From Candidatus Tenderia sp. (lineage in GTDB: Bacteria; Pseudomonadota; Gammaproteobacteria; Tenderiales; Tenderiaceae): a DNA stretch of 22,271 nt. This document shows positions 5,750 through 22,271 of the stretch, in pieces. Both the position numbers and the translations under genes were made by a program. The stretch lies in assembly GCA_031416075.1 (NCBI GenBank), contig JANOSY010000059.1, positions 1 to 22,271 of the forward strand, written 5' to 3'. Position 1 is the stretch's first letter. The number at the start of each line of letters is the position of its first letter. Below the pieces are notes generated by a model that made no database searches, had not been told where the DNA came from, and saw only the letters and a program-made list of their open reading frames with translations.

Positions 5750-6988
5750 CTAAATCACGCCGGGAATAAAACGGTATTTCACCCGCTTCATGTACTCACG
5801 ATACTCCGCATGTTTACGTAGGTGGCGCTCCTCTGTGTAGGCACGCAATATATAGAGTACATTCCACGCCAGATGACCAATAATCAGCTGTGGCGATGCC
5901 CAGAACTGAGCGTAAAAGGCGGTCTGCAGCCACCAGAGCGAGAGCTTGCAGACAGTGCCAGGATGACGAATGATGCCATAAGGCCCCCGCGTCTGTAGCC
6001 GTTTTAGTGTGATGTTGACCCCTGACGGCCCAAGGGAGACGTCTGAATAGATCAGCGCCAACAGCAACACAATCTCAACCATCTTGAAGATGTAGAGACC
6101 GGTCTGCTCGGCAAACACAAAACTTTCCGGCGCAACATTGGCAATAAACGGCCCAAAGGGGAAGAGTGTGCCGGTCACCTGATTCAGGGGCTCATAACAG
6201 GCCATGCAGACCAGCCAGCCACCCACGGTCATATCAATGGAACGGGTACGGTTTTCCGCCCAGCGCGACTCGATACTGTAACCGGCACTGGCAACCAGCG
6301 CATCCATAAACCAGAGTATGGACGATAGCCAGACCAGAACCGTCATCAGGTTGTAATTATTAAAGTTATCCGCTGAAAAGCGAATGGCACTGTCCATGGT
6401 GATGTAGATCTGCACCACCATAAAGGGGATGAAGTAGGCGCGCATCACCAGATTTAATAATACCTTGCGGTTATAGGCTTTATCCAACACCGCAAACCGC
6501 CGGTTCCCCCGCACCATAAAACCGAGACTGATCTGCTTCAGGATATGCAGCAGCCTTACCGCCGGGTCGTAAAAATCCTCAACCCGTGACGCCTTAAATA
6601 TCAGGGTCAACAAAAAATAGGGGATGCCGGCAACCAAATAGATATTCAGCAACGCGTCCAGAAACTCCATGCTTTTGTCATAGCGCTGATAGTAGGGATG
6701 GCTGCCAAGAAACTTAATGCCTATAAAAAGCACCACCATCCAGACCACATACCGCGCCACCGCCCGCCGCAGCAGCGGCACCACACGGATATTCTTATCT
6801 ACATAGAAGTGGCTTAAGCCGCGCCACTGGCGGATAAAATTAGCAGCTCCCCAAAAAAGCACCATTGCAAAAATGGGCAAAAAGAACCACTCATCCAGAC
6901 CGCCAAACGTCTTAAAACCGAAATAGGAGAGTGCCGTGGCCATTACCGCCATCAGTACATAGGCGTGGGGGGAGATATTGCTATTCAT
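5750..6988 (-). CDS. Polytopic membrane protein with C-terminal isoprenylcysteine carboxyl methyltransferase (ICMT/PEMT)-like domain
   Basis: Many hydrophobic segments; C-terminal LQTRGPYGIIRHP, RAYTEERHL and YREYMKRVKYRFIP motifs typical of the ICMT/PEMT family. ATG 6988 is preceded by AGGT at 6 nt; alternative TTG start at 6994. Confidence 0.8.
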   Translation of the reverse strand: MNSNISPHAYVLMAVMATALSYFGFKTFGGLDEWFFLPIFAMVLFWGAANFIRQWRGLSHFYVDKNIRVVPLLRRAVARYVVWMVVLFIGIKFLGSHPYYQRYDKSMEFLDALLNIYLVAGIPYFLLTLIFKASRVEDFYDPAVRLLHILKQISLGFMVRGNRRFAVLDKAYNRKVLLNLVMRAYFIPFMVVQIYITMDSAIRFSADNFNNYNLMTVLVWLSSILWFMDALVASAGYSIESRWAENRTRSIDMTVGGWLVCMACYEPLNQVTGTLFPFGPFIANVAPESFVFAEQTGLYIFKMVEIVLLLALIYSDVSLGPSGVNITLKRLQTRGPYGIIRHPGTVCKLSLWWLQTAFYAQFWASPQLIIGHLAWNVLYILRAYTEERHLRKHAEYREYMKRVKYRFIPGVI

Positions 6989-7230
6989 TTTCAAACCTGT
7001 CGATCAACAAAACACCCCTCAGGGACCCGTTGCGAGCGTTGGCGCATTAATATCCTCTGCATACTATCAGCTACCGAGGGCAGCGCCCCATCCTTCAAAC
7101 ATTTATATCAACGCCAGTGCCAGGCAGCGGTCTACCCAGCCGTCCGTAGATAACCGGGGGCAATCCCGTGACAAATACCGTAAAATAAACCCTCTCTATC
7201 GCGATGCAGACCACCACACCGGAGCCACCG

Positions 7231-8166
7231 ATGCACACCGCCTCAAACAGACTGGCCAAGCTGGAAAAAAAACTGTTGCACTATACCGGCAAGGCCATTG
7301 CCGATTTCAATATGATTCAAAAGGGCGACAAAGTGATGCTCTGCCTCTCGGGCGGCAAGGACAGCTTCACCCTACTTTATATCCTTAACCTGCTACGGCA
7401 ACACAGTAACAACAAATTCGAACTCTTCTCATTCACCCTCGATCAAGGCCAACCCGGCTGGAATGATACAAAACTACACGAATGGATGCAGGAGCACCGC
7501 ATCCCCTACGAGGTCCACAGACAAGATACCTACTCGGTGGTGATCGATAAAGTGCCGGAAGGCAAAACCTACTGTTCGCTCTGTTCGCGTCTGCGGCGTG
7601 GCTCTATTTACACCTACGCCGCCAAACATGGCTATACCAAGGTTGCCCTGGGGCACCACAGAGACGACATGATCACCACGCTGATGATGTCGATCCTCTA
7701 CAACGGCGAGATCAAGTCGATGCCGCCCAAACTGCTCAGCGACAACAAACAACAGATTGTCATCCGCCCCCTCGCCTACTGTCAGGAGGAGGATATCGCC
7801 GAATATGCAGCGTTGCGCGAGTTCCCCATCATCCCCTGCAACCTGTGTGGCTCCCAGGAGAACCTAGCCCGCCAGCGCACCAAACAGCTGCTGAAAAATC
7901 TGGCTCAGGAGAATGAAAAGATCCCCAGCAATATCCTACATGCCCTTCAGGCGCTCCAACCCAGCCAACTGATGGATAAACGATATTGGGATTTCAAAGG
8001 GTTAGAGTCACTGCGCCAGAACGGGGAGTTAGCCAACATTAACGAACCCGTAAACATCGAGCCATTGATGATGACCGATGGCGATGACCCCCTTCCTCAG
8101 CAACAACACAATGACGGGGCAGCCATACAATTTCAACAATCAGCCAGATCACAACATAACCAATAA
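7231..8166 (+). CDS. ttcA: tRNA 2-thiocytidine(32) synthetase
   Basis: PP-loop [44 protein letters not shown] favours ATG 7231 (ORF track starts at 7204). Confidence 0.95.
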
Positions 8167-8170
8167 ACAA

Positions 8171-8202
8171 AAAAGGGGATCCGCAACTGCGAATCCCCTT
8201 TT
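8171..8202. terminator. Bidirectional rho-independent terminator
   Basis: AAAAGGGGAT-ccgcaactgcga-ATCCCCTTTT with A/T tails on both sides, between ttcA and the convergent micro-peptides. Confidence 0.85.
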
Positions 8203-8260
8203 CCATTTAACACACCGAACAGAAAAACGTCATCCGGCGTTCAATATCAAATATAAATAG

Positions 8261-8371
8261 TTAGGCCATCACCTGCCCTGCAAACAGGACCATGGAGATC
8301 ACCACACCCAAGGAAGCAACAATGAAGGGCAGCGAATGCACCATCAGCTGGTTGTCCGTTCCAGTATTCAT
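8261..8371 (-). CDS. 36-aa single-TM small protein (not in ORF track)
   Basis: MNTGTDNQLMVHSLPFIVASLGVVISMVLFAGQVMA*; AGGA RBS-like motifs upstream; similar to the upstream 27-aa peptide. Confidence 0.65.
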   Translation of the reverse strand: MNTGTDNQLMVHSLPFIVASLGVVISMVLFAGQVMA

Positions 8372-8401
8372 ATCCTGATTTTTCCTGTTATACGATGAGG
8401 C

Positions 8402-8485
8402 CTAAGCCATTGCCACGCTGGCAAACAGCGCAACAGAAACAACGATACCAACCAAAGATGCAACAAGTGCCAATGTTTTTTCCAT
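8402..8485 (-). CDS. 27-aa single-TM small protein
   Basis: MEKTLALVASLVGIVVSVALFASVAMA*; GGAGAG RBS 8 nt before ATG 8485. This is the C-terminal part of ORF-track 8402..8596. Confidence 0.7.
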   Translation of the reverse strand: MEKTLALVASLVGIVVSVALFASVAMA

Positions 8486-8581
8486 GATAGTTTCTCTCCA
8501 AAGATTTAGATGTTTATAGTTGGGTTTCCCCCGAAACCCAGACGCCAGAGATAGTAGCTCTGGCTGTCCAGAACAGAAACA

Positions 8582-8629
8582 TAGCAAAATAGTCATCTAT
8601 GTTTCAACTATTTTTTAGCAAAATAGTCA
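8582..8629. promoter_or_regulatory. Direct repeat and palindrome, candidate transcription-factor operator
   Basis: TAGCAAAATAGTCA occurs exactly at 8582-8595 and 8616-8629; the second copy is also part of the inverted repeat ACTATTTT-N5-AAAATAGT. Confidence 0.55.
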
Positions 8630-8798
8630 GAATTAAAGTCATTGAAAACTGTAGGGTTTTTTATTTGCATTGGGCCACACTGCCTCAATTCACGCTACAC
8701 GGATGGTGGAAAAAGAATATAAAAGGCACACTATAGGGCAGACATAAACAGCAAGCGCTGTTTCAGGATCAAAGCGTTAAGAATCTAGGAACAATGCC

Positions 8799-10127
8799 GT
8801 GACCACCATCGATGAACTCAAGAGCGACACCCCCTTTGTAAGCTGGTTTCGTCAATCCGCACCCTACATCCACGCCTTTCGTGGCTGCACCTTTGTGATC
8901 GCCTTTGACGGTGCAGCGGTCGCCAGTAGCGAATTTCCCAGTCTAATTCACGATATCGCCCTGCTTAACAGCCTCGACATACGCACGGTGTTGGTCCACG
9001 GCGCACGACCACAGATAGAGACACGCCTTGCGGAGCGTGGTGCCACACTCGAATACATCAATGGCCTGCGTGTCACCAATGATGAGGCCTTGATTTGCGT
9101 TAAGGAGGCGGCGGGCAGTGTACGGGTAGAGATTGAGGCGCTGCTCTCCATGGGGGTGGCCAACTCGCCCATGTCCGGTGCCCGCATCCGCGTGGCCTCC
9201 GGTAACTTTGTGGCGGCCAAACCGGTCGGGGTGCGCGAAGGCATTGACTACTGCCATACCGGCGAAGTGCGGCGTATTGATGCCGACGGCATTCGCCAAC
9301 GGCTCGACGACGATGCCATTGTGTTGCTGTCACCGTTGGGATACTCCCCCACCGGCGAGATATTCAACCTGACAACCAATGAGATCGCCACCGCTGCGGC
9401 CATTGCACTAAAAGCGGACAAGCTGCTCTTTTTAACGGAGGCAGAAGGTATTTACGATTTGGGCCAACAGCTGTTGCGTGAACTGAGTATCGAGGCGGCC
9501 CAGCAGCTACTAACCCGTCATCAGAGCAGTGAACTGGAGCTTCAGTATCTGCGCCATGCTGTCCATGCCTGTCAACAGGGTGTCAAACGTACCCACCTGA
9601 TCGATCGCAGTGTTGATGGCGGGCTATTGCAGGAGCTATTTACCCGCGACGGCATCGGCACCCTTATTACAGCCGGTATCTATGAAAAGATCCGCCTTGC
9701 CACTATTGATGATGTAGGAGGCATTTTCGAGCTGATCGAACCTCTGGAGAATGAGGGGGTGTTAGTGCGCCGCTCCCGTGAACAGTTGGAGCTGGAGATC
9801 GGAAACTTCACCGTTGCCGAACGCGACGGCACCATCATCGGCTGTGCCGCGCTCTATCCATTTAAGAGTGACCGAATCGGTGAGCTTGCCTGCCTGGCCA
9901 TTCACCCCATTTATCGCAATACGGGACGCGGTGACGAGCTGCTCGCCACCCTTGAAAAGCACGCCAAACAGAGTGGCATTGACCGGCTCTTTATTCTCAC
10001 CACCCATACCTCGCAATGGTTTCAGGAGCGCGGCTACGAACCCGCCACTCTAGAGAGCCTACCCATAGAAAAGCAGGTACTGTATAACTACCAACGCAAA
10101 TCCAAGGCATTTATTAAGACCCTATAA
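8799..10127 (+). CDS. argA: Amino-acid N-acetyltransferase (N-acetylglutamate synthase)
   Basis: FVSWFRQSAPYIHAFRG, VHGARPQI, LSPLGYSPTGEIFN, ELFTRDGIGT, C-terminal GNAT domain (ELACLAI, LTTHTSQWFQERG, YNYQRKSK); GTG start with AGGA RBS. Confidence 0.97.
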   Translation: MTTIDELKSDTPFVSWFRQSAPYIHAFRGCTFVIAFDGAAVASSEFPSLIHDIALLNSLDIRTVLVHGARPQIETRLAERGATLEYINGLRVTNDEALICVKEAAGSVRVEIEALLSMGVANSPMSGARIRVASGNFVAAKPVGVREGIDYCHTGEVRRIDADGIRQRLDDDAIVLLSPLGYSPTGEIFNLTTNEIATAAAIALKADKLLFLTEAEGIYDLGQQLLRELSIEAAQQLLTRHQSSELELQYLRHAVHACQQGVKRTHLIDRSVDGGLLQELFTRDGIGTLITAGIYEKIRLATIDDVGGIFELIEPLENEGVLVRRSREQLELEIGNFTVAERDGTIIGCAALYPFKSDRIGELACLAIHPIYRNTGRGDELLATLEKHAKQSGIDRLFILTTHTSQWFQERGYEPATLESLPIEKQVLYNYQRKSKAFIKTL

Positions 10128-10261: not shown

Positions 10262-10945
10262 ATGATCAAACAAGCCATGGTTGGATTTGCCCTACTCACC
10301 AGCTGCACAATAGCGCAGGCTCTTCCGGTAGTGCAGTTCTCTGACTTTATCAATGACGGCACACGTAGCAACTTCAACGGCTTTGAGAGCATTCCTAACG
10401 ATGGCACAATGTATACCAATGGTAGCGCCTATATCGAAGATGGAGTTATGGTGCAGCAGATTAACGGTGATTCCGGAAACGACATCTGGGTTACCTACAC
10501 CGGCTCACATCATCAAGGCGGTTACAGCTGGTATCCAAACGGCGGTGACAATGGTTACACCCAGATATCCCGTAGCGGTGGATTAAACTTCGAAGATGTA
10601 GGAATGATCATCGGTAGCGGTTTTGGCCTGGCCAGCAACGTTTTTTATGAGCTACTCAGCAATGGTGTCTCTGTGCTTTCCGGCTCCTTTACCCCCACAT
10701 CTAACCAGTACCTGGGTTTTTCCGGTGGTGGTTTTGACAAAATCCTTCTTGCTGACTGCTCACAGTGTGACTCATTCACCACCTCCGTCACCGATGGCCA
10801 TTTCCAGGCACTGGCCCTGGACAGCATCGAACTCTCCGGTACGGTTCCAGAGCCAACTTCATTAGCACTGTTGGCGGCAGGATTGATGGGGCTGGGCTGG
10901 CGCAATCGTAAGACATCACTGAACAGCACAACCATTACTGCGTAA
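10262..10945 (+). CDS. PEP-CTERM sorting-domain exported protein
   Basis: N-terminal signal peptide (MIKQAMVGFALLTSCTIAQA), G/S/N/D-rich body, C-terminal VPEPTSLALLAAGLMGLGW-RNRK (PEP motif, TM helix, basic tail). Confidence 0.93.
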   Translation: MIKQAMVGFALLTSCTIAQALPVVQFSDFINDGTRSNFNGFESIPNDGTMYTNGSAYIEDGVMVQQINGDSGNDIWVTYTGSHHQGGYSWYPNGGDNGYTQISRSGGLNFEDVGMIIGSGFGLASNVFYELLSNGVSVLSGSFTPTSNQYLGFSGGGFDKILLADCSQCDSFTTSVTDGHFQALALDSIELSGTVPEPTSLALLAAGLMGLGWRNRKTSLNSTTITA

Positions 10946-11037: not shown

Positions 11038-11700
11038 TCAGAAACTATTTCTCAGGGCCAGTGCCAACATCAACCGATTGTCAATATTGAGCTTTTGAAA
11101 AATATTCCCCAGATGGGCCTTAATGGTTCTCTCCGAGACATCCAATTTCCGGGCAATCAGCTTGTTATTCAGCCCTTCAGTAATCAACTTGGCCACTTCA
11201 CACTCACGCTGCGTAAGAGACTCCAACGATAGCTGTTTTTCAAGCGGCACTGTTGCAGCATCCGGAATCAAAATACCGGCAATCATCTTTGCGATCAGTC
11301 TACGTGGCAACCATGCTTCCCCCGCAAGCAACGAAGCAACCGCCTTTTGTAACATATTTGCCTCAACCCCTTGCAAACAGCAGCCACGTACACCGCAATA
11401 GATCCACTCAAGATCGATCATATCCGGGTCGTCATCTACCATCATCAATATTGAGTTATTGCTTATACGACCAAGTTCCACCAGCAAGGAATCACGTCCG
11501 CTGTGTATCAGCGCACTATCACAGATAAACAATGATGGTCTGATAGCTGATTCAGAATATAAAAAAGAGTCCAAAGCCGTGCGATCAGCCGCGCATTCCA
11601 CACGATAATCAGGCAACGCGGCAGACCAGCTGTTCAGTAACGCTGAATTAGCACTGGCAACTACAATGGCCGTAGCCCTGGAGGCCTCTTTTTTATTCAT
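11038..11700 (-). CDS. NarL/LuxR-family transcriptional regulator with degenerate receiver domain
   Basis: C-terminal LTQRECEVAKLITEGLNNKLIARKLDVSERTIKAHLGNIFQKLNI (LuxR HTH); N-terminal REC-like region (LFICD, GVRGC, AGEAWLPR). Confidence 0.9.
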   Translation of the reverse strand: MNKKEASRATAIVVASANSALLNSWSAALPDYRVECAADRTALDSFLYSESAIRPSLFICDSALIHSGRDSLLVELGRISNNSILMMVDDDPDMIDLEWIYCGVRGCCLQGVEANMLQKAVASLLAGEAWLPRRLIAKMIAGILIPDAATVPLEKQLSLESLTQRECEVAKLITEGLNNKLIARKLDVSERTIKAHLGNIFQKLNIDNRLMLALALRNSF

Positions 11701-11860: not shown

Positions 11861-12295
11861 ATGAATATGAATACTAAAGTTGCATGCATCAGCACCGATA
11901 CATCACTTGCGTCACATCTGAATGCCATTGATGGGTTTGAGCTTGATGTTGGTTCGCCGCAGGAGGCACGCCCATTACTTCACAAGACCCATCATGATGT
12001 GGTGGTGCTGGATATCCGCAACCACCACGCTGCGTTGTCATTGATAGAAGCGATACGCCGCTGGCAGCCCGGTGTGCGCATTCTTCTGCTGGTGGATGAC
12101 AACAGCGACGAGCAGACATTAATGCAGCTGATATTTGCTGGGGCACTGGGATATCTCAATCAGGCGGATATCCCATCGCGCCTGCATACGGCCGTACTCG
12201 CTATTCAACAAAATCAGGCGTGGGTGCCACGGCACATCGTCTCTCATTTTATCAACGCACTTTCAACACTAAAACAGCACACTGCCCTACGTTAA
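11861..12295 (+). CDS. Stand-alone NarL-type receiver-domain protein (no HTH)
   Basis: HDVVVLDIR, PGVRILLL, AGALGYL, AIQQNQAWVPR; ends where the HTH would begin. Confidence 0.8.
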   Translation: MNMNTKVACISTDTSLASHLNAIDGFELDVGSPQEARPLLHKTHHDVVVLDIRNHHAALSLIEAIRRWQPGVRILLLVDDNSDEQTLMQLIFAGALGYLNQADIPSRLHTAVLAIQQNQAWVPRHIVSHFINALSTLKQHTALR

Positions 12296-21404: not shown

Positions 21405-22271
21405 CTCAGTCATCCCCTCATTTTTTAGCTTAAACAAAGCCAAGCATTGCACTCCATGCACGCTGCTCACGCAGCATTTCCGAGAATTTTTGCATGATAG
21501 GCGCAAGCCATTTCTCTGGCATGTTCGGGATCAACCCGTAAATCATCCAGCCTTGGCGGAATAGCGAATGCGTTCGGTGCTTCACCGTGTTCGTTTTTAG
21601 CAGGCGGTCGTAACCAACGCTTTCACCAGCAGCACCTAACAGTGTCAATAATACGATGGCAAAAGCGGAGAGCAGAAATAGTCTATCGCGCCGCGCTGTA
21701 CTCGACGTACGCGTGGCGTACATGCCCATGCCAAAGCGGGGGTCCTTGGTGTCTCGGAAATAGGTCTCTATACCCCAGCGCTTACCGTAGTAATTGATAA
21801 GCTCGGCAGCTTTTGCATCGGTTGCGCTTGACGCTAGACACCACGCTTCTTTCATCTCTTTTGCCCAGACGCAAACCACCGTCGGTACTGCACACTCCTC
21901 GGCTGTGATCTTCGCGTTGCGTAAGGTTTTCGGGCGGCCTGTCGGTGTCACCCAGTCAGCCGTTTGACGCCGCTCGCCATCACTGGCGGTAATCCAGATA
22001 TTCTTTTTTAAACGGATGAGATAATCGAACTTTAGCTCGTCGCGCAGGAATTCAAACAGGCGTGTATCGCCAAATCCGCGATCAGCGATTACGGTGACTT
22101 TTACCCCTGCCGGTAGAACTTCATGTAAACGGCTCAATACTTCATCTTCGTAGTCATTGCGGCGTGCTTTCAACGCGCTCTTTTCTACCGTTTTCCACAC
22201 CAGCGGGGTTGCGCGGCCGTGATTGGTCAGTAAGTTCAGTGCGATCATGGTGTGGCCATCATCATCAAAAT
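21405..22271 (-). mobile_element. IS4-family insertion sequence (IS10-like), partial
   Basis: Terminal sequence CTCAGTCATCCCCTCATTTTTT from 21405 resembles the IS10 end (CTGAGAGATCCCCTCATAATTT). It contains a transposase, and the other end lies outside the window. Confidence 0.85.
21430..22271 (-). CDS. IS4-family DDE transposase, 5'-truncated by the window end
   Basis: Frame is open to the window end (..FDDDGHTMIAL); IADRGF and YGKRWGIETYFRDTK (YREK signature). Confidence 0.93.
   Translation of the reverse strand, partial: FDDDGHTMIALNLLTNHGRATPLVWKTVEKSALKARRNDYEDEVLSRLHEVLPAGVKVTVIADRGFGDTRLFEFLRDELKFDYLIRLKKNIWITASDGERRQTADWVTPTGRPKTLRNAKITAEECAVPTVVCVWAKEMKEAWCLASSATDAKAAELINYYGKRWGIETYFRDTKDPRFGMGMYATRTSSTARRDRLFLLSAFAIVLLTLLGAAGESVGYDRLLKTNTVKHRTHSLFRQGWMIYGLIPNMPEKWLAPIMQKFSEMLREQRAWSAMLGFV

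Follow-up and report, generated by a model that had tools for sequence, protein, structure and literature searches.

The interval between the ttcA and argA genes in the stretch of Candidatus Tenderia DNA analyzed here (22,271 nt, referred to as the window) is, as read from the sequence, a short self-contained operon of ∼0.4 kb comprising a promoter, a leader, two small open reading frames (smORFs) that we call A and B, and an intrinsic terminator. We consider the locus self-contained because the promoter, leader, and terminator are conserved along with the ORFs. Both A and B are very probably protein-coding. The interpretation that this operon specifies two paralogous inner-membrane microproteins acting as accessory or regulatory subunits has, in our estimate, an even chance of being correct. 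The genes and the elements immediately surrounding them are the following.

Positions 7204–8166, plus strand: ttcA, a member of the PP-loop family (E 6e-13).
Positions 8164–8209, minus strand: predicted intrinsic terminator, an inverted repeat with 22-nt arms that gives a GC-rich hairpin followed by TTTTTTGTTT and directly adjoins the stop of ttcA, which is on the opposite strand.
Positions 8261–8371 including the TAA stop (8264–8371 without it), minus strand: smORF B, 36 aa, MNTGTDNQLMVHSLPFIVASLGVVISMVLFAGQVMA.
Positions 8372–8401, minus strand: A–B spacer of 30 nt, which carries the AGGA ribosome-binding sites for B.
Positions 8402–8485 including the TAG stop (8405–8485 without it), minus strand: smORF A, 27 aa, MEKTLALVASLVGIVVSVALFASVAMA.
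Positions 8494–8499, minus strand: Shine-Dalgarno sequence of smORF A, GGAGAG, 8 nt 5′ of the ATG (CTCTCC on the plus strand).
Positions 8799–10127, plus strand: argA, with amino-acid kinase (AA_kinase) and GNAT domains.

A sequence-only reading of this DNA had described two consecutive smORFs on the minus strand, each with its own ribosome-binding site, that end at a shared bidirectional terminator. Both frames are present at the coordinates listed, and both ribosome-binding sites can be read directly from the sequence: GGAGAG for A and, for B, an AGGA located 11 nt 5′ of the ATG with a second AGGA only 1 nt 5′ of it. At the Shine-Dalgarno position of A, GGAG or GAGG is retained across the aligned loci of relatives, and the distance from the A stop to the B start is 28 to 51 nt in 13 loci. 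There is no terminator between A and B. The proposal of a bidirectional terminator held for one strand and less well for the other. Terminator-like hairpins were called on the minus strand only (two overlapping calls versus a mean of 0.8 in shuffled sequences), and an equivalent A-tract/hairpin/T-run arrangement, a strong predicted terminator, is found 3′ of the B stop in all 13 loci, with the hairpin starting about 25 to 55 nt downstream. On the plus strand the hairpin, which begins at the ttcA stop, has only TTTT after it; its service to ttcA is plausible but weaker. The genome that contains the window (3.49 Mb, 99.98% complete) has a single locus, and further copies of the family are absent from it. 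The C terminus of ttcA itself (8040–8166) is a Q/P/D-rich tail that varies in length and sequence among relatives and ends in ...QADPF in one genus. Elsewhere in the window, positions 10262–10945 (plus strand), just 3′ of argA, encode a PEP-CTERM protein (E 3.8e-8) that adjoins a LuxR/GerE-type regulator (11038–11700, minus strand); two ORFs, 5750–6994 (minus strand, 414 aa) and 11861–12295 (plus strand, 144 aa), are without a Pfam match at E ≤ 1e-5; and the window end (21430–22248, minus strand) encodes a DDE transposase (DDE_Tnp_1, E 1.4e-16).

The coding character of A and B is indicated by their pattern of change among relatives. Over 13 genomes the mean pairwise pS and pN were 0.57 and 0.21, respectively, for A and 0.59 and 0.24, respectively, for the 27-codon core of B (pS about 0.57–0.62). 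All six frames were compared for 10 representatives of the 13 loci (the near-duplicates G003, G011, and G012 were left out), and the annotated frame had the lowest pN/pS for both A (0.35) and B (0.42), with the other five ranging from 0.52 to 2.3; the non-annotated frames contained stops in 4 to 10 of the 10 sequences, one frame of B excepted. Variable columns at the first, second, and third codon positions numbered 19, 15, and 24 of 27 for A and 20, 10, and 26 of 27 for B, so that the third position dominates. Smorf A is 27 aa long with a conserved start and stop in 12 of the 13 loci of the order, and in the 13th its frame opens farther upstream (33 aa from the first ATG, 25 aa from an internal ATG). 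For B, 11 of these loci have a length of 36 aa and the remaining 2 a length of 32 aa. Two loci have Ile or Val in place of the internal Met10 of B, and the upstream ATG is therefore the conserved start. Two metagenome loci, L081 and L082 (3123–3224), have a B without the N-terminal extension MYREIKKP; their only possible start, the Met equivalent to residue 10, yields a B of 27 aa. Strain variants detected in four DNA runs were the same as in G003, namely G32 and L9 (synonymous) and Q8R in B, and V16I and V12A in A. Selection on the protein pattern, as had been suggested from the two peptides alone, is thus borne out as purifying selection, with pN well below pS in relatives, and the ORFs are conserved there in the same ttcA–argA interval.

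These results also bear on the alternative that the interval functions as a small RNA or as a regulatory region of argA, the ORFs being incidental. Such a role could account for the conservation of the leader and promoter DNA, and the Rfam search did return one match, to sraL (8436–8573, minus strand), although at 16.9 bits against a gathering threshold of 39 (E 0.37) it is below threshold and at chance level. The predominance of third-position variation, the lowest pN/pS values in precisely the annotated frames, and a start, stop, and length that are fixed over 13 loci all speak for protein coding, and we regard the non-coding explanation as very improbable. In the expression table of a metatranscriptome paper on Ca. 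Tenderia electrophaga, the best-studied member of the order, argA (Tel_03930) and ttcA (Tel_03935) carry consecutive tags and are 652 bp apart with no gene between them (PMC5371394); as far as these entries go, the table consequently gives no value for the interval.

The two peptides are related to each other. When aligned without gaps, A and B share 9 of 23 residues, the same count as in the sequence-only reading, and 10 of 27 over the full core; the probability that composition-preserving shuffles reach this identity was P = 0.0017 for the 23-mer and P = 0.0004 for the 27-mer. A profile of A matched a profile of B from end to end (hhalign probability 98.3%, E 2e-14), and the alignment of 26 A and B sequences is free of internal gaps. 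We conclude that the ORFs are true paralogues, as had been supposed. B corresponds to an A-type core with a 9-residue N-terminal extension, which reads MYTGIKKP... or MYREIKKP... in most genera and MNTGTDNQL in the genus of the window. The earlier description of the products as transmembrane peptides is likewise supported by hydropathy and structure prediction: each has one strongly hydrophobic stretch (17-residue Kyte-Doolittle means of 2.76 and 2.52 for the two peptides), and AlphaFold2 modeled B as a single helix spanning residues 3–35 (pLDDT 83.5). The hydrophobic core, which begins at residue 5 in A, is flanked by 4–13 residues on its N-terminal side and 6 on its C-terminal side. Cys is absent from the A and B of the window, and neither has a signal-peptidase or lipobox site. 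Of 16 sequences, 13 have a charge of +1 to +3 in the N-terminal flank of B, while the C-terminal flanks are 0 or −1, a distribution that fits an N-in/C-out orientation under the positive-inside rule; the N-terminal flank of A has a net charge of −1 to +1, mostly 0, and so provides a weak topology signal for that peptide.

Conservation is concentrated in the C-terminal half, presumably in the outer leaflet. In A it forms the block L12-G-I-V-V-S-V-A-L-F-A22 (80–99%), which is followed by (Q/E)-x-M-A. The G-x3-S residues of A, G13 and S17, through which the sequence-only reading had suggested that the peptides could dimerize, are invariant in 10 of 10 rows and sit within this contiguous block, not on one helix face; the conservation in A has a low helical moment and almost no helical periodicity. 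This pattern looks like that of a helix contacted all round, beyond a mere greasy anchor, and the contiguous L12–A22 block with its low helical moment argues for specific contacts over generic hydrophobicity. Adjacent genes, small helical peptides, and small-xxx-small motifs are likewise what an exported two-peptide bacteriocin or a pair of signaling peptides would offer. The peptides are uniformly hydrophobic, not amphipathic, and have no processing site and no double-glycine leader of the class IIb bacteriocin kind; genes for an ABC transporter, immunity, or modification are absent from the window, and the locus lies in core-genome synteny. We judge export of this kind to be exceedingly unlikely.

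The locus is widespread in its order and rare beyond it. With peptide A as the query, 12 of the 16 other genomes of the same family were positive, and 44 genomes representing 44 other families gave a single doubtful match (E 0.23, within a frame of 449 aa). Of the 17 genomes in the order, that of the window included, 15 had the locus according to the A+B profile; the two misses are genomes that are 77% and 85% complete, and the high-quality genomes were positive in 7 of 7 cases. All 13 loci that were read have A and B in tandem and divergent from an argA-like ORF, and 12 have a convergent ttcA-like ORF (judged by N- and C-terminal sequence, not by Pfam). L015 (G006) is the only locus of the order lacking the latter, and a 217-aa ORF on the same strand as the smORFs is present there past B. 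From metagenomes, 371 stretches matched a pattern and 6 passed tblastn, and the same gene order was seen in all 6 of these confirmed loci. A profile search of 1.84 billion protein representatives returned 17 clusters, every one of which has a length of 27–64 aa and clearly belongs to this family.

When 401 genomes sampled evenly from the class were searched, 12 had a match at E ≤ 0.01, of which 3 were in the order, 7 were spurious (inside frames of 121–1041 aa), and 2 were small ORFs. One of the small ORFs (G267; 27 aa, E 4e-12) is at a contig end and the other is in G281 (28 aa, E 8e-4); both occur as single copies and are divergent from argA. In G281, ilvD is downstream and directly adjacent, and in the window it is 4.5 kb away. 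Among relatives of G267 the profile matched 1 of 41, which was G267 itself, and its argA is 63% identical to that of the window, thus no closer than the argA of other families in the class, for which identities go up to 67%. A search next to argA in 28 other families of the class (the control recovered both ORFs in their own locus; L066 was left out) showed a family-like smORF divergent from argA in 0 of 28 and an unrelated hydrophobic ORF in 1 of 28. The recurring link to argA may be inherited synteny or may reflect functional coupling. A departure from the usual arrangement occurs in G002 (L088:1–800), a member of the genus of the window, where the B type is missing and two A-type ORFs of 25 aa are found in tandem units 353–355 nt apart. 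Each unit has a promoter, a leader with a G-rich-loop hairpin, a Shine-Dalgarno sequence, and an ORF, with DNA identities of 85% and 82%. The encoded peptides end in ...ARL, not QxMA, and the ancestral ...GTAATGGCCTAA end persists, read out of frame. As G002 is without B and without QxMA, the C-terminal motif and the A/B pairing are not indispensable.

The predicted regulatory elements 5′ of A are the following.

Positions 8486–8571, minus strand: 5′ untranslated leader of ∼86 nt, with its start placed ∼7 nt past the −10 and containing hairpins 1 and 2.
Positions 8522–8539, minus strand: hairpin 2, in which a 7-bp stem (GGGUUUC/GAAACCC) closes an invariant GGGG loop, ∼36 nt 5′ of the A start.
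Positions 8540–8569, minus strand: hairpin 1, in the leader.
Positions 8578–8607, minus strand: putative sigma-70-type promoter, with a −35 of TTGAAA (8602–8607), an 18-nt spacer ending in TGC, and a −10 of TATGTT (8578–8583).
Positions 8612–8645, minus strand: A/T-rich block 5′ of the −35, TTTAAT-N2-TGA-N4-TTT-N2-TAAAAA.
Positions 8582–8595 and 8616–8629, as read on the plus strand: exact 14-nt direct repeat TAGCAAAATAGTCA, 34 nt from start to start.

A consensus scan of positions 8100–8850 detected a single promoter-like site, and none on the plus strand. Because shuffled sequences average 1.4 such sites, a single one is no more than chance would give, and support for the promoter comes from its conservation in relatives. 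Among 14 aligned loci, the −35 has TTG in 14 and TTGAAA in 10; the extended −10, which is TGCTATGTT here (TG, with C at −13), is of the TGCTA(T/A)G(G/T)T type with C at −13 in 13. A sigma-32 reading of the CTTGAAA −35 was ruled out since the −10 is unlike CCCCATnT, the sigma-32 consensus. The A/T-rich block, a possible UP-like element or operator, is conserved within the order (13 loci) and in part also in G267; in the 3.49-Mb genome a perfect copy of its pattern occurs only here, and two other matches have 2 mismatches. One copy of the 14-nt repeat overlaps the promoter spacer and extended −10 and the other is within the A/T-rich block upstream of the −35, a placement in which the repeat may be an operator, and elsewhere in the genome it has one match only, with 1 mismatch. 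With both elements essentially unique to the locus, a regulon search of the same genome found no co-regulated genes. More conserved blocks lie between the smORF promoter and argA (8690–8798 and the aligned loci). On the smORF strand they read ...TTTTGCACC... and, immediately before the start of argA, TAAG(T/C)CTTTGA; they are presumably argA promoter or leader signals.

A C at −13 is a preference of sigma-S, and its occurrence in nearly every aligned TGCTAnGnT element, the presence of an rpoS orthologue (409 bits versus a cut-off of 378.7), and the absence of a partner gene nearby would suit membrane peptides that act autonomously in stress or stationary phase, altering the bulk membrane from a sigma-S-type promoter and requiring no protein partner. 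The sigma-S assignment of the promoter is, however, only putative, and both the contiguous block and the C-terminal (Q/E)xMA argue for specific contacts. We consider such autonomous action unlikely.

The leader is predicted to be strongly folded, with an RNAfold energy of −28.6 kcal/mol (z = −3.3; 0 of 200 shuffles were as stable), and its inferred length is 61–86 nt across the 13 loci. Pair counting for hairpin 2 on a loop-anchored alignment of 13 sequences (12 distinct) showed compensatory changes at 6 of the 7 pairs. The share of paired cells was 82.1%, whereas shuffles gave 63.5% and none of 500 was as high; the best register was slide 0. From the leaders as aligned by MAFFT alone, RNAalifold predicted 0 pairs, and hairpin 2 is found in the single-sequence minimum free energy fold of 9 of the 13 loci. 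The GGAGAG of A is unpaired or weakly paired in the minimum free energy and centroid folds, as is its counterpart in the other 12 loci. Hairpin 2 is SD-like or GGA-containing, and its candidate ligands are CsrA, a small RNA, and the ribosome. The csrA gene is present in the genome; the motif recognized by CsrA is GGA in a loop, to which GGGG(A) is only a partial fit, and the CsrA idea stays speculation.

A long structured 5′ untranslated region that is conserved along with the ORF, together with a product of 27 aa and a single transmembrane helix, is also what a type I toxin-like locus would show, and DinQ is itself 27 aa. According to this explanation the peptides would depolarize the membrane or form pores, their synthesis would be repressed at the leader by an unseen small RNA, and the copies would be comparable to those of ibs, ldr, and zor. 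Type I toxin loci often expand by tandem duplication of the unit, as the entire unit has done in G002, and the family is narrow, as judged from its 17 clusters. Yet the locus occurs once per genome in a core-gene synteny that is fixed over the order, and the Shine-Dalgarno sequence is unsequestered in the predicted folds. The opposite strand is without a promoter-like site in 8100–8850, and no repeat suggestive of an antisense or divergent complementary RNA was detected, the sole direct repeat (14 nt) being in the promoter and outside the predicted transcript; this antisense check is computational only, and a trans RNA could still be encoded elsewhere. A contiguous and strongly conserved block would, moreover, be unusual where hydrophobicity alone suffices. 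A toxin role is, in our view, doubtful.

We favor instead the proposal that one operon would give rise to two paralogous single-pass inner-membrane microproteins, both inserted with the N terminus in the cytoplasm and the C terminus in the periplasm. The peptides would pack together or on a partner through L-G-(I/V)-V-(V/I)-S-V-A-L-F-A, the block in the outer leaflet, and through (Q/E)-x-M-A at the C terminus. They would serve a larger membrane protein or complex as small subunits with an accessory or regulatory role, with the GGGG-loop leader hairpin tuning their synthesis post-transcriptionally. On this analysis A and B probably associate with each other. Most characterized bacterial membrane proteins of ≤50 aa work as accessory or regulatory subunits (CydX, AcrZ, KdpF, and MgtS), and the subunit interpretation draws on this precedent together with the protein-level conservation, the contiguous block, the single locus in core synteny, and the open ribosome-binding site. 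No partner gene is linked to the locus, and the neighboring ttcA and argA encode cytoplasmic enzymes. The functional part of the proposal, namely the accessory or regulatory subunit role, we place at even odds or marginally below. A more specific version, in which A and B form an order-specific heteromeric module with its own GGGG-loop RNA control that acts as an as yet unseen subunit or assembly factor of the membrane respiratory or electron-uptake machinery of Tenderiales, appears improbable; if it were true, the adjacency to argA in three separate gammaproteobacterial families would represent shared control of a bidirectional regulatory region and not mere inheritance.

Proteins of 27–36 aa are missing from most annotations, and here an order of uncultured sediment chemolithoautotrophs keeps a pair of them as a core locus with promoter, leader, and terminator. 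The pair is a well-delimited and testable addition to the small-protein catalogue, and it illustrates cleanly how microprotein families evolve, here through duplication of an ORF (A to B) as well as of the whole unit (G002). No long-standing question is opened by it, and there are many orphan families of this sort.

The two peptides were compared with known families of small membrane proteins. Neither had a match near any cut-off in Pfam or NCBIfam. When the 26 members were searched, CcoM (NF041600) matched 3 at E 0.54–0.7 and ∼10 bits versus a cut-off of 40, MgtS (NF033842) matched 1 at E 0.013, the Pfam MgtS-like model matched 1 at E 0.14, and KdpF (TIGR02115) matched 1 at E 0.97; the AcrZ and CydX models gave zero matches. 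The best hit of a PDB profile search was mitochondrial cytochrome c oxidase subunit 6A1 (E 0.66, 13 bits), which is at chance level. That protein is also a single-transmembrane accessory subunit, and an 18-residue stretch of it aligns to the start of the core, but a relationship is not evidenced. The best score in the ESM Atlas was 0.84, which is under the 0.9 level used for leads, and a full-text literature search found no paper on this pair. The statement in the sequence-only reading that the family was not recognized and is not CydX, KdpF, AcrZ, MgtS, or Ibs-like agrees with these searches, in which no curated family of Pfam, NCBIfam, or the PDB was matched.

In their general character A and B resemble CydX, CcoM, KdpF, AcrZ, and MgtS, which are 27–37 aa long with one transmembrane helix and almost no soluble part, have conserved small residues in the helix, and have their own Shine-Dalgarno sequences. 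They differ from these proteins in having no sequence relationship to them, in forming a paralogous pair, and in not being located beside an oxidase, kdp, acr, or mgt gene; the 22-kb window contains no oxidase genes. With the type I toxins DinQ, TisB, Ibs, and ZorO they share a small hydrophobic transmembrane peptide, a long structured 5′ untranslated region, and duplication of the unit in one genome, whereas they depart from them in the lack of an antisense or divergent complementary RNA signal, the open Shine-Dalgarno sequence, the one locus per genome, the order-wide synteny, and the strongly conserved block. A preprint on Tenderiales describes, in the part concerned with the cbb3 genes, two STMD proteins of ∼35 aa beside those genes (10.1101/2022.05.06.490989). 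Like A and B, these are single-transmembrane proteins that are conserved within the order and rare outside it, but they are encoded in the cco region and not between argA and ttcA (10.1101/2022.05.06.490989). Since the genome of the window has no further copy of the family, the STMD proteins, as presented in that part of the preprint, and A/B are not detectably related. We conclude that A and B constitute a new and narrow family within a known kind of gene.
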